Below are positions 21,001 to 30,000 of a stretch of DNA of 64,000 bases, piece by piece. The position numbers are program-made. Source of the stretch: Candidatus Hydrogenedentota bacterium (GTDB lineage Bacteria > Hydrogenedentota > Hydrogenedentia > Hydrogenedentales > SLHB01); NCBI GenBank assembly GCA_963745075.1, contig CAVUWV010000008.1, forward strand, positions 96,001 through 160,000, given 5' to 3'. Numbering within the stretch: position 1 is the stretch's first letter; every line of letters starts with the position of its first letter.

Positions 21001-24000
21001 TCGTAAGATTTGACGGTGACGAGAATGAGATCGAAACCACCCGGGTGGAGTCCGCCAAGATGGGTGTGCACGTCCAGATCGGTGACTTGGTGTTCGCCCC
21101 AGATCCCGGTGATGTGCAGGCCGCGTTCGCGAATGGCCGCCATGTGCGGGTCGCGTCCCACCAGCGTGACGGCGTGGCCGTGCCTGGCCATAAACCCGCC
21201 GACGGCGCTTCCCAACGCGCCCGCCCCCACAATCAACAACCGCATGCTACCCCCTCGAAATCGGAATCGAGAAACTACGTCAACGACGCACTCAGTATAG
21301 TGCACCCGCGCGGCAATTCCGAATGGCCGCTTCCGCCGTGTGCGTTCGAGTTATTACCCACCAAGGTCCTGTTTGGATGTTGGGCACGAGTTTAACCATG
21401 GACAAGATTTGAAGAACATCCCCCTTGATCCCCCTTCAAAGGGGGAGTTTCGCAACCCCAAGTTTCGGTAACATAGGTCGTTAAGAGAACAACTTGGAGT
21501 TCTCCGGTCTTCCAAAACGCAACACAAAGCGTTGCGTGATCAATTCCCCTTGAAGGGGGATCAAGGGGGATTTTCTTCATTGTTCTCCAAGAGACTTGGA
21601 GAGGGCTGTGCACTTTGTGCAAGGGATCGGCGCAACCGCTGGACTCACGGGGTTACCGGAGCGCGAATTCGATTTGGATGGTGGAGATGGTGTTGTTCAA
21701 CACGTGCATGGCAAAGGGGACGTAGAGGGAGCTGGTCCGGGCGCGGGCGATTCCGAGCAGGAGGCCAAGGGTGAACACGGCGGAGACGTCGACGATGCCG
21801 TATTCTCCGAGGTGGGCCACGGCCCAGAGGAGCGCCGTCAAGACAATCGCGCCAGGAACACCGGCCGGGGACGCGGCGATTCCGCGAAACATGAATCCGC
21901 GGAAGAGGACTTCTTCGAAGATGGGCGCGGCGAGGGCAATCGTAAACCAGAGGAGCGGCGCGAATCCGGCGGTTTCAAACCATTTGGTGATTTCACCGGG
22001 AATGGGCGGTTCGCCTAAGGCTGCGCGGATGTAGTCGGTCCCAAAAACGCAGACTACGGTCAAAATTGTCCACCCGATGACGCGTAAGACGCCGACACGC
22101 CGCAGTGCGAGGTAGTCGCGAATGCCGATGTGTTTACGCGCCCAGGCCAGGAGAATTGTCGTGGCGACACAGACGGGGACGGCAACGCAGGTCGAAACGG
22201 CAATAAACAGGCCATTGGAACCCAGGGCCGCGGCGTATGCATGGGGATCGCTGCCTTGATGCCGGACCGCCCACACCGCCACCGCCAGAAATGCCACTGG
22301 AATCTGGACGATGGTGAACACGAAGTAGACGAAGAGGGAGAAGACGAGGGTCAGCCAGAACCCCCAAGGTCGCGGTTCCGGCGTAGCGACCGGCAGTGGC
22401 GACGGGCCGTCCGTGGTCTCCGGTGTATCCATAATCGGTCCCCGCGCTATTTGGGCGGCCAGGCGTAGTTGCCGGTATAGAGGTCGAAGAGGGTGCGGTA
22501 GAACTTCATGAAGCGCTCGGGTTGATCGTTGTAGCCGATTTCGGCAAGGCACCAGCCCGGATAATTCATGGCTTTGAACCGGTTGAACAAATCCTGCCAG
22601 GGGTATTGGTATACGCCGATTTCCGTGATGTGGCAGTGCGTGATCTTGTCCTTGAGCAAATTGAAATTTTCTTCAATGCTCTGGTTTTCGTCCATGTCGC
22701 CGGCGTTGGAATTCCAGCAGACCGTTGCCATGGGGTGATCGGCGTAGTCCATGATCCTCCGGATGATCTTCGGATTCGACGAATCCCGACCGTGGACTTC
22801 CAGCCGCACTTCCACGCCGATGTCCCCCGCGAATTGCGCGACCTGGCGCATGGCCTTGCCGATCTGTTCGCAGGTCTTCTCCACGGGCACCTCGTCCGGC
22901 AGCCCGTTAGGCCGCACCTTGATTCCCGGCGCGCCTACGTCTGCGGCCAGCCGCGCGTACGCGATGGAACCTTCAATGTTTTCCTTGACCACGGCGGGGT
23001 CCGGGCTGTGGAATTCAAAGGCGGACCCGAGACCGGCCAAATCGACCTTGGAATCGTCGAAACGGCGTTTCACGTCCGCCCGTTCCGCCGCCGAGAGGTT
23101 TACCTCGACGCCATGGGCGTGGGTCGTGCGCAATTCGACCCCTTCCAAGCCCGTGTCTTCACAGAATTTAATCAGCGTGGGCAAATCCATGTCCTTGCCC
23201 ATGTTGTAGGTAACCATACCAAGTCTCATCGTTGAAACGTCCCTTCTGCATTCGCGTTATCCACGCGGCTCCCGGTCAATTCCCCCTATCGTAGCCGATG
23301 CCCGGGGAGATGTCCACGGGGTGAGCGAGGGAGGGGCGCGACAGAGACCGGAAGATGCGTCTCAGGCGTCGATATCCGTCCGTGCCGCTGACCAACTGCG
23401 GCACTGGCGTCCCTAGTCACACTTCGGTTCCGGCATCAGACTATACTGTGAAATCGGGAGACGCCCATGTTTCAACAGCGCTATCGTCACGGACAGGGCC
23501 TCGTACGGCAGGTATTGGCCGGGCAACGCGACGCGTATGGAAAACTGGTCGACCGCTATCTGGCCGCCGCGTTTTCCGTCGCATTCCCCCATACCCGCAA
23601 CCGTCTCGACGCGGAGGACGCGGCGCAGGAGGGATTCTTACGCGCGTTGCAAACCCTTGACCGGCTGCGGGATCCGGAACGATTCGCGCCTTGGCTCCTG
23701 ACGATCGTTCGCAACATTTCCGTGGATATCGTTGCAGCCCGGGAGCGCGAGCGAAAATCCGGGACGAAAGTGGCGTCGGACGATGCAACGTGGATACCGG
23801 ATATGGAAAAGCGCGATATGTGGGCAAAACTGCACGAACAGATCCAACAACTCGACGATCAACATCGCGAGGTGCTGATGCTCTTCTACTTCGCGGGACA
23901 TTCCGCCAAGGAAATCGCCGGTCTACTCAATACGTCGCACGAGGCCGTGCGCAAACGTCTTCAACGTGCGCGCGAAGCGCTCGGTGCGCGGATGCTTGAG

Positions 24001-27000: not shown

Positions 27001-30000
27001 GATTCGTTTCACGTGACGCAGTACGTGACCGTACAAGATGGTGAAGTCACATGCATGGATTTTGATTTCTTACCGCAATCGGGTGTCCTGGAGGGAATAG
27101 TATCCCTTGATGGCGTACCCATTGACGCGTCCGTCCGGCTGTATGTCACAACGCCCTCCGGAGAGCAGCAGATGAACACGTTTGCCGATTTATCAGGCGC
27201 CTATCGGTTCGACCGTGTCCCGCCGGGCGATGGAAAGGTCGTTGCGATTGTCCGTTCCGGAGCGGGAGTGGACGGTTCCAAGCGTGCCATGGTCCCCGTT
27301 AAGCTGGTTTCGGGAACCACCACGCAGCAGGACATATCCAGGAAGACCGGTGCATCGGTCGCGGTTTATGTTGCCAATCTGGGTGAGGATGAATCGACGA
27401 ATGTCTTTGCGTATTTCGGTGACGTTCGGGCCTATTGAATCGCGTTCAGACCGGGAAATGGTGGGTAGCGCGCGAGCCGCGATCGCACACCGTGGTGATG
27501 ACGGCGCGTATCACTTCACCGGATTGCAGCCCGGAGTCTATACCATCGTCGCGTATACGAATACCAGCCGCAATCCAAACGTCTGGCTCAACACCCGCGC
27601 AACACACCAAGTCATCGAAGTATCGGAAGACGGGAGAACAGCCACCGTCGAATTGAGACTGCCGTAGGTAACCGCGAATGAGCTCTCACGCTACGTAGTC
27701 CCCACCGGAATATCTCGGGACTTTCACACCGAATCGATCCGAACCATCCAAAAGTGTGCATAAGCCGCGCCATAGGCGGAAACGATTGCTGATTCCACCG
27801 GGCCAGCGGCGCGGGGTTCCGCTGGGGCTTGCGCGTCCCGCCAATGGGTTCCACTTGGTCGAGTCAGGACACCGATTAGCTCAGAGGAAGAGCAGTGCAC
27901 CGCTAATGCACGGGACGCGGGTTCGATACCCGCATCGGCTACCCTTGGAAAGGGTTGTGGGTGACTACCCACTCGATGGAACCGGAGGCGAAGCGCGGGC
28001 GGCGGGTCCGCCGGCTTGTCGCAGATTCGCCGGCGCATGGCGTCGGGCGGACGGTGGCAGGCAGCATCGGCAGCGGTCCTGCAGCGCGCGGATACCACGC
28101 CGTCGGCGTGGCCAGGGCCGGATGAAGGCCCGCGAGGCGTGCCTCGCGGCGCGGACTTCCGGCGAGGCTGCGCAACCGGCCTGGCTCACGTGGCGCTCCA
28201 CCAACGCTGGTGTGGCGGACTTCCGCCCGGCGCTTCGCTACGGTCAATGGCCACGGTGATGAGTTTTAATCGGACCGATCGGTCGGATCGGTCCGATCAA
28301 GAAAGGAGAACAAGGAGAAGAAGGATGTTTGGAGTACGGCGCGTACAGATTCGGTCCTTTGAAAAGGGCCTGTTGACGAAGCACGGCGAGTTCGTGCGCG
28401 TGCTGGGACCGGGCCGCTACTGGACCGTCGACGCCGTTGTTGCAGCGGCAGATCGACGTGTCTTCGATGCGGACGCCCTGGATCTGCCACGAACAGTTGG
28501 ACGTGATGATCCGGTCCGGCGCGTTGAAGAGCGACGCGGCCGTGCTCGACCTGGAACAGCATCAGCGTGCGCTGGTGTGGATCGACGGGCGGCTCAATGT
28601 GGTGCTCGGACCGGGGCAGTACGCCTTGTGGACCGGCGCGCGCAAGGTCCGCACGGAGGTCGTCGACACGCAATCGGTCCGCTTCCATCACTTGCAACTG
28701 CATGTGGTGTTGAACGCGCCGGGCGCGGAAGCGGTGTTGAACAAGTACACGGTCGAAGAGGGCCACGTGGGCGTCTATTTCAAGGACGGCGACTACGTCG
28801 AAACTTTGAAGCCGGGCACCTACGCCTTCTGGAAGGACGTGGCGAAGGTCGTTGTGCAGGTGCGCGAAATGCGCGAGTCCGTACTGGACGTCACGGGTCA
28901 GGACATCATCACGCAAGATAAGGTGACGCTCCGCGTAAACGCGGTCGTAACCTTTCGCGTGACCGATGCCCTGAAGGCCGTGTCGACCGTCGACGACGCG
29001 CGGCAGGCCTTGTACCGCGAAGCGCAGTTGGCCTTGCGGGCCGAGGTGGGCGCGCGCGACCTCGACGCGTTGCTCGCGGACAAGATGAGCCTCACCGAGG
29101 CCGTCGAAGCGGGCATCCGCGGCCGCGCCGCGGAGTACGGAATCGCTGTGACCGGATTCGGTATCCGCGACATCATCTTGCCGGGCGAGATGCGGGATCT
29201 GATGAACAAGGTCACGGAGGCCAAGAAGGCCGCCGAAGCCAACTTCATCACGCGCCGCGAGGAAACGGCCGCCATGCGCAGCCAGGCCAACACCGCCAAG
29301 ATGTTGGCCGACAACCCGACGCTGATGCGGTTGCGTGAGCTGGAGGTGCTCGAAAAGATCGCCGCCACTTCCAAGCTCAACGTCGTGTTGGGCGAGAAGG
29401 GTCTCGCGGATCGGGTTGTGAATCTGTTGTAGGCTGGAGACCGGAGGCTGGAGTAGAACGGGGCCCACACTGAATCGGTGTGGACCCCGTTTTTTATCAG
29501 GTCGCGTTTTGCTTGCCCCCGACCTGGAGATCTCTTAGTGTATTCGCAGAAGCAATTCTGTCCCGACAAGTGAGCGTGAACGTTTTGGCCACGATTCCGA
29601 AAGATGACGAGTCGCCTACCCTTCTTCTAACTGATCCCGTCACCGCCTTGCCCGGAGTTGGTGACAAACGGGCGGATCTCCTCCACAATCTCGACATCGT
29701 GACGGTTCGGGATCTGCTGTTTCTTTTTCCGCGGGACTATCAGGATCGGCGGACGATTGAGTCCATTGCCTCCATCGCCGAGGGCGACACGGTCACCATC
29801 GAGGCGGAGGTGGTGAAGGCGCGTCCGGTGCGGTTGCGGCGGCGGTTGTCGATGGCGGAGGTGACGTTGCGTGACGACTCCGGCGAGATTCGAGCCGTGT
29901 GGTTTGGGCAGGACTACCTCGTTCGGGTGTTGAAGCCGGGGGCGCGGGGATTCTTCACGGGAACGGCGGGGAAATGGAACGGCGTCGCACTGCGCAATCC

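Follow-up and report, generated by a model that had tools for sequence, protein, structure and literature searches.

Single-chain ECF sigma factors with a predicted membrane helix and outside CarboxypepD_reg-like arrays in a Hydrogenedentota bacterium

Results

Architecture of the window gene

The sequence analyzed here (the window) is a 64,000-nt stretch from Candidatus Hydrogenedentota bacterium (GCA_963745075.1, contig CAVUWV010000008.1, positions 96,001–160,000). It contains an intact open reading frame (23467..27438, + strand; GC 0.67/0.50/0.63 by codon position) encoding P0001, a protein of 1323 aa with Sigma70_r2, Sigma70_r4_2 and CarboxypepD_reg matches, as a preliminary description of the locus had stated. 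A conserved element lies upstream (23417..23461, +) and comprises TCACACTT (23417–23424), a −10-like TATACT (23442–23447) and a ribosome-binding-like GGGAGA (23456–23461). In a genome of the same genus (L100), the blocks GTCACAyTT .. GTTCC .. CAGACTATACTGTGrAAT.GGGAGA are likewise found 5′ of a gene 62% identical to that of P0001, and we infer that the element is a putative promoter.

The N-terminal part of P0001 is a sigma domain. Region 2 spans residues 27–94 (23545..23748, +; PF04542, Sigma70_r2, E 1.7e-13; AF2 pLDDT 92–97) and region 4 spans residues 121–172 (23827..23982, +; PF08281, Sigma70_r4_2, E 1.4e-12; pLDDT 93–98). P0001 scores 80.4 bits against the NCBIfam superfamily TIGR02937 (cut-off 42.9), and no NCBIfam equivalog matched it at its cut-off. 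In the AF2 model, the sigma2/sigma4 arrangement is closest to compact, anti-sigma-bound structures (CnrH/CnrY, TM 0.75, rmsd 5.5; SigW/RsiW, TM 0.68), as compared to rmsd values of 22–28 for RNA-polymerase-bound forms. This compactness may be a habit of the model, because many of the solved ECF structures are anti-sigma complexes.

The sigma domain is followed by a conserved linker, termed type A (residues 178–208; 23998..24090, +), which in alignments consists of a basic stretch and then an amphipathic helix, (R/K)xI(M/T)xxVxAxPxxW. An Ala/Gly/Ser/Thr-rich flexible stretch comes next (residues 209–226; 24091..24144, +; pLDDT <50 for residues 209–227), leading into a predicted membrane helix (residues 227–249; 24145..24213, +). 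This helix call combines a hydropathy window, whose peak in P0001 (residues 222–240) reaches only 1.69, with an AF2 helix at 227–249 (pLDDT 73–78), and uses no topology predictor. In the type A and type B models, AF2 placed the membrane helix at 227–249 and 221–246, respectively. Of the 19-residue hydrophobic window of P0001, a fraction of 0.53 consists of small or helix-weakening residues (G, A, S, T, P). On the outer side, a 60-aa spacer (residues 250–309; 24214..24393, +) is 70% P/S/T/A/E/G/Q and was modeled without regular structure (pLDDT 54–58).

The remainder of the protein is an array of 11 tandem CarboxypepD_reg-like beta-sandwich modules (residues 310–1300; 24394..27366, +). PF13620 matches P0001 in ten stretches (E 3e-92, 303.4 bits versus a cut-off of 32.3), and a purpose-built repeat HMM resolves 11 units. 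A twelfth module (27367..27667, +) is interrupted at 27427 by a frame change of one base, as judged from three-frame translation, the DNA and alignments to P0002 (1399 aa), the closest homologue of P0001. Residues 1214–1321 of P0002 match P0001 in frame 0, in an alignment ending ..YFGDV (27424–27426), and residues 1305–1399 match the +1 frame from 27428 to its stop (56% identity, E 8e-28). Stop codons occur at 27436–27438 in frame 0 and at 27665–27667 in the +1 frame. Since the P0002 alignment switches frame, the window gene has a one-base frame change; the frame is indeed open to 27438, the gene end previously assigned, but coding resumes in the +1 frame for 229 bases beyond it.

Eighteen genes of one build in the genome

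A genome census with PF04542 returned 54 matches at E<=0.01, and 52 of them exceed the cut-off (50 sigma-70-family genes had been counted in the preliminary description). Eighteen of the 52 lie in open frames of 559–1397 aa (called ORFs, 553–1384 aa), and the census, the ORFs and hydropathy bear out the claim that these share one build of sigma, linker, predicted membrane helix and outside part. All 18 combine PF04542 with PF08281 or PF04545 and carry no further sigma region, as in ECF (group 4) factors; the Pfam matches for the sigma regions are full-length in every case. Each also has a 19-residue Kyte–Doolittle peak of 1.69–2.95, starting at residues 214–262. CarboxypepD_reg (PF13620) is above the Pfam cut-off in 15 of the 18 proteins rather than 12, and the repeat HMM finds 2–12 modules per protein (107 in total) in place of the 1–8 first reported. 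Pfam WD40 families were not detected in any of the 18. Five further members are broken or cut: four type B loci with frame changes and one type A gene at a contig end.

Alignment reproduces the two linker subtypes already noted, here types A and B, which define two clades among the 18. In a quick tree, type B genes and the four broken loci form one clade (SH-aLRT 99), as do eight of the ten type A genes (SH-aLRT 95). Paralogues are 37–56% identical in their sigma domains and 25–35% identical in their arrays, and this divergence of both parts suggests many parallel channels, which would differ in inputs and promoters.

Full-length relatives are present in further Hydrogenedentota MAGs, as anticipated. 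With a profile of the type A linker and helix, 177 representatives were found at E<=1e-3 among 1.84 billion. Among the 150 of these that were listed, the match starts at residues ~155–200 in 144; 137 reach 500 aa or more, and among these 121 have beta-sandwich repeats (median 8). In these relatives, the predicted type A linker and helix are coupled near-obligately to a sigma domain and beta-sandwich arrays, and, judged by its sequence context, the putative module did not arise by recent capture of a free anti-sigma. Of 61 Hydrogenedentota genomes sampled, 25 contain the type A module. Type B relatives carry many differing ectodomains, and six distant, WD40-bearing relatives (P0114–P0119; 31–34% identity over sigma, linker and helix) have the linker motif RRG..L....AA.P..L, the Lys and the membrane helix in common with type B.

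The linker as a candidate inhibitory element

No Pfam anti-sigma family was found in the 18 linker segments; FecR gave no match in P0001 at E<=0.01 or in the 18 segments at E<=1, and zf-HC2 and RskA gave none in these segments at E<=1. Residues 174–238 of P0001 contain neither Cys nor His. At the Pfam level, then, the earlier view that no anti-sigma domain is recognizable stands, but it does not cover a linker that is conserved and perhaps docks on the sigma domain. Most of the 18 proteins have a Lys at, or immediately ahead of, the predicted membrane helix, and this residue, as Lys230, is invariant in the 29 sequences of A1; G174, P196 and A207 are near-invariant in the 53 sequences of A3, where relatives have CarboxypepD_reg, WD40, HEAT, LRR or thioredoxin ectodomains. 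By this measure of conservation, the linker is under constraint.

The linker is modeled with moderate confidence as short helices. Its helix extends to residue 203 in P0001 (pLDDT 81 in block 191–200), and the helix pLDDT of 81 for type A and 77–82 for type B falls off in the flanks. Complex prediction of residues 178–229 against residues 1–177 gave ipSAE values of 0.41/0.42/0.41 (0.00 in three controls), which lie in a band that, by the tool's own account, is wrong in more cases than not unless the hypothesis was already plausible, and which may be raised because the two pieces adjoin in one chain. At least 84% of contacts recur between runs, and the partner pLDDT is 56–58. The prediction thus points weakly to a linker that may dock on the sigma domain of P0001. 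Together with its conservation, this makes the linker a possible inhibitory element, minimal in size and built into the chain.

Neighboring genes and a candidate protease

Searches for anti-sigma families were negative among the 16 ORFs around the window gene and among 62 neighboring ORFs at 17 loci, and the same two sets contained no TonB-dependent receptor. No neighbor gene common to the 17 loci emerged from the 62 ORFs as a pointer to a regulon. Of the 30 short sigma genes, about 20 have directly behind them an ORF whose single hydrophobic segment lies at residues 40–117 (from ORF calls and hydropathy only); this is the usual anti-sigma layout, so by layout there are about 20 pairs. The genome encodes an RseP-type M50 protease (650 aa, with HEMGH and PDZ domains). 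Its presence says little, because such proteases are near-universal (PF02163 matched in 14 of 14 genomes used as a control).

Discussion

The predicted architecture holds across the family: a cytoplasmic ECF sigma, one membrane helix per chain and an array outside. It is reasonable to suppose that these sigma factors need release or activation at the membrane. On balance, we consider it probable that they are one-protein transmembrane signaling devices in which sigma stays tethered to the membrane until regulated intramembrane proteolysis releases it, much as happens with IutY of Pseudomonas putida, where trimming by Prc and then cleavage by RseP free the sigma domain (described in parts of PMC5411451 and PMC8999054). 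The full-length protein would be made constitutively and be inactive; constitutive synthesis of P0001 would fit the TATACT −10-like element kept in L100. Inactivity would follow from holding the sigma domain at the membrane, probably also from packing of the linker helix on the sigma2/sigma4 pair. Outside, a rod of 11–12 CarboxypepD_reg-like modules would stand on a 60-residue unstructured stalk, tied to sigma by the linker and the Ala/Gly-rich helix. Binding to the array, its unfolding, or its trimming by an envelope protease would be the signal that shortens the outside part, an RseP-type site-2 protease would next cut inside the weakly hydrophobic helix, and the freed sigma domain would join RNA polymerase, as that of IutY does.

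Cleavage might not be needed at all. A ligand or partner on the array could cause a conformational change that, via helix and linker, unlocks sigma or lets a partner do so, with the chain left uncut through part or the whole of the cycle. Extensions of the ECF57 and ECF42 types have been proposed to act in this way, and the passages on ECF57 in PMC8999054 propose protein interaction and conformational change, not proteolysis; the type B linker and helix are common to the WD40-bearing relatives, and the conserved, possibly docking linker would suit such a switch. However, a membrane-bound sigma would have to operate in RNA polymerase with an outside part of 1100 residues still attached, one Ala/Gly-rich helix beside a disordered stretch (residues 209–227, pLDDT <50) is a poor rod for a conformational signal, and the one single-chain membrane case experimentally resolved in the literature cited, IutY, uses proteolysis (parts of PMC5411451). 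We regard activation without cleavage as unlikely. ToxR and CadC are membrane-bound one-component regulators and offer analogues for a sigma that is active while tethered, recruiting RNA polymerase to membrane-near promoters, with the array setting only abundance or location. The ~50-residue linker with its flexible stretch could give the sigma domain the reach for this, and no separate inhibitor is recognizable. We nevertheless consider it quite improbable, since an inhibited state is suggested by the conservation of the linker helix and by the compact model of sigma2/sigma4, 18–23 such proteins would hold a large share of polymerase at the membrane, and the literature searched offered no case of a sigma factor that is active in the tethered state.

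The extensions could also have arisen incidentally, when genes duplicated and captured coding sequence downstream of them, and sense nothing; the products would then be mainly proteins of the envelope that retain a vestigial sigma head, or else sigma factors whose tail is irrelevant. Planctomycetal ECF paralogues set a precedent, having unrelated, variable extensions for which capture after insertion was proposed (Pinto and da Fonseca, in portions of PMC7671368); the varied ectodomains of type B relatives agree with it, and the four broken loci are compatible with birth-and-death turnover. We give this reading little credence in view of a non-random junction, with linker and helix in all 18 proteins and the Lys in most, the narrow placement of the module in 144 of the 150 listed representatives and the one array type in 121 of 137 long ones, sigma regions that are full-length in 18 of 18, and the spread of the type A module to 25 of 61 sampled genomes of the phylum. 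Frame breaks do occur in this assembly (the 3′ end of P0001, the four type B loci and a DEAD-box helicase present as two ORFs, L004:8889–10140), and mis-assembly, or read-through of separate sigma and anti-sigma genes via assembly errors, might be invoked to explain the fusions. Set against 18 ORFs that are intact and independent, relatives found at full length in other assemblies and sources, and a junction without stop or start codon in which the linker is continuous with the final sigma4 helix, such an artefact is hardly credible. Regulated intramembrane proteolysis remains the reading we prefer.

Comparison with known systems

Computational work has already described fusions of sigma factors to membrane-spanning extensions, among which the CarboxypepD_reg variant is a little-studied one. 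Fusions described in the consulted sections of PMC8999054, PMC7826278 and PMC7671368 include IutY, ECF48/52/53, ECF263 and ECF57, and the same sections give planctomycetal ECFs extensions up to ten times the size of sigma. ECF48, ECF52 and ECF53 (Actinobacteria, e.g., SCO4117) resemble P0001 in fusing sigma to a membrane-spanning extension but have a zinc-finger (ZAS-like) element before the membrane span; zf-HC2 and RskA are absent from the 18 linkers and Cys and His from the corresponding segment of P0001. The outside part of ECF52 includes a Pro-rich stretch and a carbohydrate-binding domain, and proteolytic activation has been proposed (parts of PMC8999054 and PMC5826349).

ECF57 comprises planctomycetal ECFs with long C-terminal extensions rich in WD40-like repeats and two conserved cysteines, perhaps a link between sigma2 and sigma4 (from the ECF57 entry of PMC8999054), at 5.3 copies per planctomycete genome (from part of bioRxiv 10.1101/2019.12.11.873521). 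The resemblance lies in the many copies per genome and in the type B linker motif, Lys and membrane helix, all as in the WD40-bearing, ECF57-like P0114–P0119. Jogler and colleagues are said to have described an ECF57 membrane helix in 2012. P0114–P0119 have both the sigma2 and the sigma4 Cys, whereas type B proteins have the sigma2 Cys (near-invariant C36) and lack the sigma4 Cys in eight of eight, with a Cys in QECF/QDCF instead, and type A has no conserved Cys pair. The extension is WD40-like in planctomycetal ECF57 and CarboxypepD_reg in the Hydrogenedentota family of P0001; the 18 proteins, lacking Cys pair and WD40 extension alike, differ from ECF57 in these described features.

Canonical sigma/anti-sigma pairs of the RpoE–RseA type, which site-1 and site-2 proteases cleave, likewise keep sigma inactive at the membrane until an outside signal leads to proteolysis (per portions of PMC8103513), but use two proteins and an anti-sigma domain of 80–100 residues, as opposed to one chain and a ~50-residue linker. 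IutY, assigned to ECF243 in a section of PMC8999054, has a FecR-type anti-sigma domain and a TonB-dependent receptor and acts in cell-surface signaling; the P0001 family differs from such FecI–FecR hybrids in that neither FecR nor an adjoining TonB-dependent receptor was found and a beta-sandwich array lies outside. In its layout of a cytoplasmic ECF sigma, one membrane span and an outside part in a single chain, IutY nonetheless parallels P0001 and is, in the source sections cited, the sole such protein with a demonstrated mechanism.

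Architecture and 3' end of the window gene

The longest ORF of the region, 23467-27438 (+), opens with ATG and encodes a protein of 1323 aa (P0001). Pfam places Sigma70_r2 at residues 27-94 and Sigma70_r4_2 at 121-172, finds no sigma region beyond these two, and assigns CarboxypepD_reg to ten stretches (E 3e-92); in NCBIfam, the ECF superfamily model TIGR02937 is the sole model over its cut-off. With a repeat HMM built from P0001 and iterated over the 18 paralogues, the array resolves into 11 tandem modules at residues 310-1300. Between region 4 and the first module lie a conserved linker (residues 178-208), an Ala/Gly/Ser/Thr-rich stretch, a predicted membrane helix of 19-23 hydrophobic residues (227-249; helical in the AF2 model, Kyte-Doolittle peak 1.69) and a 60-residue spacer that is 70% Pro, Ser, Thr, Ala, Glu, Gly and Gln. 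Lys K230 is invariant across a 29-sequence alignment. The gene belongs to one of two linker subtypes, type A.

The closest homologue, P0002 (1399 aa; 63% identity to P0001 over the N-terminal 300 residues), aligns in frame 0 as far as ..YFGDV at 27424-27426 and then in the +1 frame (GPIESRSD...LRLP) from 27428 to the stop at 27667 (56% identity over 96 residues, E 8e-28). These matches indicate that a one-base frame change at 27427 interrupts a twelfth beta-sandwich module (27367-27667). The ORF given in the preliminary description is confirmed; its end at 27438 is the frame 0 stop, with homology to P0002 running on to 27667. An assembly indel at 27427 is as likely as a real mutation or truncation, since this assembly also cuts a DEAD-box helicase gene in two and breaks four sigma loci of the other linker subtype (type B). 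The helicase gene, at 8889-10140 (-) of the excerpted paralogue locus L004, appears as overlapping ORFs for its DEAD (275 aa) and Helicase_C (159 aa) parts, which suggests indel errors in the assembly and bears on every 'broken' sigma locus. Five DNA sequencing runs contained 5-9% of the sampled words, and no RNA run with them was listed.

A family of fused sigma factors in one genome

The genome holds 52 PF04542 matches over the cut-off, where 50 sigma-70-family genes had been claimed, and 18 of these lie in open frames of 559-1397 aa (ORF calls, 553-1384 aa). A strong hydrophobic peak on the Kyte-Doolittle scale, starting at residues 214-262, is present in 18/18, which bears out the hydrophobic stretch past region 4 reported for them. 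CarboxypepD_reg exceeds the Pfam cut-off in 15 of the 18, up from the 12 first counted, and the repeat HMM finds 2-12 modules in each (107 in total) in place of 1-8 domains. The observation of 18 sigma-helix-array genes is real and somewhat larger than stated. Of the three proteins below the CarboxypepD_reg cut-off, one has several hydrophobic segments (contig C14:192407-195094), and in the other two the outside part belongs to no known family. The 895-aa, type-A-like sigma factor encoded at locus L007:5001-7688 (+) lacks beta-sandwich repeats and has hydrophobic peaks at residues 221, 277, 344 and 541, resembling the polytopic extensions of group ECF263. The non-repeat ectodomain of the gene at locus L016 matched only unnamed clusters in the ESM Atlas.

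Both linker subtypes were recovered in the N-terminal alignment. Type A comprises ten genes, including the window gene, with the junction QRARE.L ... (R/K)xIMGxVxAxPxxW; type B comprises eight, with RRG(V/I)...A..L......AAP..L...(I/L)GK(L/M)A. Within a type, sigma domains share 37-56% identity and arrays 25-35%. All 52 sigma domains were placed in a quick maximum-likelihood tree (SH-aLRT support only, 35 of 49 inner branches unresolved, the careful search unfinished), where the eight type B genes fall in one clade with four 'short' sigma ORFs (SH-aLRT 99) and eight of the ten type A genes in another (SH-aLRT 95). A ninth type A gene is sister (SH-aLRT 85) to a sigma ORF truncated at a contig end (C17:187401), itself a cut type A gene. 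Frame changes account for the four short ORFs, which are type B genes whose linker, helix and beta-sandwich sequence runs on in other frames: C27:144985-~148980 (+), C21:16584-~18665 (+), C8:~222390-226688 (-) and C1:286402-~289255 (+). With these four and the contig-end ORF, the build is represented by up to 23 of the 52 sigma-type loci.

Two further sigma factors of ~445 aa with a long C-terminal part, at C8:11325-12671 (-) and C8:14413-15744 (-), pair in the tree (SH-aLRT 99). Neither has a strong membrane-type hydrophobic peak where the helix of the fused genes falls, and they represent another type of extension, probably soluble.

Genomic surroundings and upstream elements

The window gene has two minus-strand genes upstream, one for a xylose-isomerase-like TIM-barrel protein (22447-23229) and one for an Rce1-like CPBP intramembrane protease (21653-22552); downstream are an SPFH/Band 7 gene (28437-29432, +; GC3 0.87) and recG (29480-31660). 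Neither the Rce1-like nor the SPFH/Band 7 gene was found again at the other 17 loci, and the former was rejected as a dedicated protease on account of this absence. No neighbour gene is conserved across the 17 loci of the paralogues. Glycoside-hydrolase-like genes lie near ~6 of these 17, a count kept out of the evidence because there is no genome background rate to weigh it. Elsewhere in the window, at 11828-17022 (+), a gene for a 1251-aa PSCyt1/PSCyt2/PSD1 (DUF1549/DUF1553) protein stands ahead of a DUF1501 gene, a pair typical of Planctomycetota-like genomes.

In the 45 bases before the window gene's start codon, TCACACTT is followed by 17 bases, TATACT and GGGAGA. This 45-base block is kept ahead of a 62%-identical gene in a same-genus genome, and its TATACT looks more like a housekeeping -10 element than an ECF promoter. 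A consensus scan of 23150-27900 found promoter-like and terminator-like sites no commoner than in shuffles. The upstream regions of types A and B yielded no single common ECF-type motif, and a loose type A upstream pattern had 14 genome-wide matches, mostly unrelated. Ahead of three type B genes (C9:143315, C11:536 and C36:15210), GCGTCGA(C/T)xTAC stands 14-51 bases before the start codon (L011:~4966-4977, L012:485-496 and L004:~13905-13916 in the excerpted loci), with TTTCG 16-19 bases further upstream in two of the three. Twelve-mers of this type number nine genome-wide, and the other six look intragenic. The element may be an ECF-type auto-regulated promoter of a type B sub-clade.

Anti-sigma partners and CarboxypepD_reg neighbours

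No anti-sigma factor was found among the 16 ORFs scanned around the window gene, nor an anti-sigma family in any of the 62 neighbouring ORFs at the 17 paralogue loci. For ~20 of the 30 short sigma genes, the next ORF, judged by ORF calls and hydropathy only, carries one hydrophobic segment, at residues 40-117, an arrangement usual for membrane anti-sigma factors. Because these short genes adjoin an anti-sigma-like ORF and the fused genes have no such neighbour, sigma/anti-sigma pairs and single-chain sigma factors appear to coexist in one genome.

Separate CarboxypepD_reg protein genes lie directly downstream of four fused sigma genes (L004:16149-17003 (+), L012:2115-3209 (+), L015:7928-10426 (+) and C34:~98498-99469 (-)), and their products may serve as targets or co-sensors, or may be pieces split off from the arrays. 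At each of C36:326537-329026 (-) and C36:335389-337887 (-), a short ECF gene with an unusual amino-acid composition stands ahead of a membrane anti-sigma-like ORF, after which comes a 1100-1190-aa frame with an N-terminal CarboxypepD_reg match. This layout recalls the sigma/anti-sigma/SusC-like trios of Bacteroidota.

Relatives and the linker-helix module

The N-terminal 300 residues of type A matched 26 proteins at E<=1e-5 (8000 scored). Those that are named come from Hydrogenedentes/Hydrogenedentota, 'FCB group' or 'bacterium' and are labelled sigma factor or hypothetical only, in agreement with what the preliminary description reported for relatives in other Hydrogenedentota. The type B query (the gene at locus L008) matched 96 proteins at the same threshold (8000 scored); most carry CarboxypepD_reg, and the rest have WD40, HEAT, LRR, thioredoxin, DUF1559 or no known domain. 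A contig profile search with the 29-sequence alignment returned at least 80 loci of generic ECF sigma domains only (match residues ~10-200) and was uninformative on how widely the fusion is spread among taxa.

A profile of the type A linker and helix alone (79 positions), searched against 1.84 billion entries, returned 177 representatives at E<=1e-3 and 8 at E<=1e-10. For 144 of the 150 listed, the matched segment begins within residues 155-200; the six exceptions comprise one low-complexity match and five that are short or match near the N-terminus, and these five are probably fragments. Among the same 150, 137 have at least 500 aa, and 121 of the 137 carry beta-sandwich repeats (repeat HMM; median 8, maximum 12). 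By this position and these arrays, the module is almost always fused behind a sigma-sized domain and tightly coupled to this array type. No free anti-sigma-like form of the type A linker and helix was found with the profile among the matches listed.

Conservation and predicted docking of the linker

Alignments and models together suggest that the linker is more than a passive tether, each individual line of evidence being weak. G174, P196 and A207 are near-invariant in the 53-sequence type B alignment, some members of which are relatives whose ectodomains are of the WD40, HEAT, LRR and thioredoxin kinds. In the type A AF2 model the last sigma4 helix extends to residue 203 (pLDDT 81 in block 191-200), and pLDDT drops to 42-46 over the Ala/Gly-rich stretch. 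The type B model has short helices at 179-190 (82 and 77 in blocks 171-190) and 197-208 (58 in blocks 191-210), followed by disorder and then the membrane helix. With residues 178-229 and 1-177 predicted as separate chains, using an alignment made in this analysis, ipSAE was 0.41, 0.42 and 0.41 as compared to 0.00 in three controls, which the tool rates as weak support; partner pLDDT was 56-58, and the runs agreed in at least 84% of contacts. In Foldseek, the type A model is matched best at low rmsd by compact, anti-sigma-bound sigma factors (CnrH/CnrY, TM 0.75, rmsd 5.5; SigW/RsiW, 0.68; RpoE/NepR, 0.67), as compared to rmsd 22-28 for RNA-polymerase-bound forms, and AF2 may prefer the compact sigma2/sigma4 form from habit.

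The linker and helix segments (residues 170-300) of all 18 proteins matched no anti-sigma family even at E<=1. The earlier statement that no separate anti-sigma domain is recognisable holds to this extent, but it passes over a linker that is conserved, modelled as helices and given weak docking support. A second membrane helix at type B residues ~175-193 (KD 1.5-1.75), which would place the array inside the cell, was rejected on two counts: AF2 gives a short 12-residue helix, and in most of the eight type B proteins this segment has only 13-16 uncharged residues before an acidic one.

Proposed activation and rival explanations

Release or activation at the membrane, as first proposed, is reasonable but unproven. 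The best-supported reading is a route like that of IutY, the sigma/anti-sigma hybrid of Pseudomonas putida, and we infer all of its steps beyond the architecture. The full-length protein would be inactive through tethering, and perhaps also through linker docking. An event at the outside array would expose or trim the disordered stalk, an RseP-type protease would then cut the Ala/Gly-rich helix, and this cut would free the sigma domain. Site-2 proteases prefer helix-weakening residues, and the genome encodes a 650-aa M50 protease with HEMGH and PDZ domains.

As rivals to this route, the sigma domain could be activated by a conformational change without cleavage, or could act while tethered. 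The extension could also be a captured, non-regulatory tail, or the fused ORFs could be an artefact. Against the last, a type A sigma-linker-helix query (260 aa, E<=1e-25) found matches in 25 of 61 genomes chosen to sample the phylum, spread over 18 of 39 genera; a matching genome has 1-12 copies, nearly all in 500-1435-aa frames.

Beyond the IutY-like route, it is conceivable, if improbable, that the ~30-residue linker is a built-in minimal anti-sigma element of its own class, with one or two amphipathic helices clamping sigma2/sigma4, that it co-evolved with the cleavable Ala/Gly-rich helix and is never found as a free anti-sigma factor, and that the 2-12-module rod is a length- or force-dependent probe of surface polymers or of the envelope itself. 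If so, the loci of this build, up to 23 of 52, would be parallel single-protein mechanosensing or proteolytic channels.

Significance and relation to known systems

Eighteen intact copies in two clades make a compact, well-defined family in one genome, with a conserved sigma-linker-helix module and an outside rod that is repetitive and easily truncated. To our knowledge, Hydrogenedentota is a phylum with very little experimental biology. The family opens the questions of whether a short linker can replace an anti-sigma domain, how a non-enzymatic beta-sandwich array triggers intramembrane proteolysis, and how ~20 such channels are insulated in one cell. It may be a source of orthogonal one-protein sensors for synthetic biology; the picture of which kinds of sigma regulation exist is unchanged by it.

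Single-chain membrane-spanning sigma forms are, as far as we know, known mostly from sequence surveys, IutY alone having been dissected. According to PMC7826278, C-terminal extensions rank second in frequency among the modes of ECF regulation (19 groups), and ECF263 has 5-7 membrane helices. PMC5411451 describes IutY as a sigma/anti-sigma hybrid released by Prc and RseP. Within PMC8999054, ECF48/52/53 are predicted to be fused to a zinc finger and 1-2 membrane helices (section 3.5.3), and ECF57 combines extensions rich in WD40 with a sigma2/sigma4 cysteine pair (section 3.5.2). ECF57 reaches 5.3 copies per planctomycete genome in the ECF reclassification (bioRxiv version), and PMC7671368 gives planctomycetal ECF paralogues variable extensions of up to ten times the sigma length.

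Linker and helix are common to type B and its WD40-bearing relatives; the relatives have a sigma4 Cys, whereas type B lacks it and has a Cys in QECF instead. Type A, unlike ECF57, has no such conserved Cys pair. Among the features tested, the family shows none of those that define the named ECF groups, and the literature listings and passages at hand contained no paper describing this sigma-helix-CarboxypepD_reg fusion. The kind of regulator is already known from computation and one experimental case, and the present family is a phylum-specific variant of it, distinguished by its unusually high copy number and its conserved, unannotated linker.
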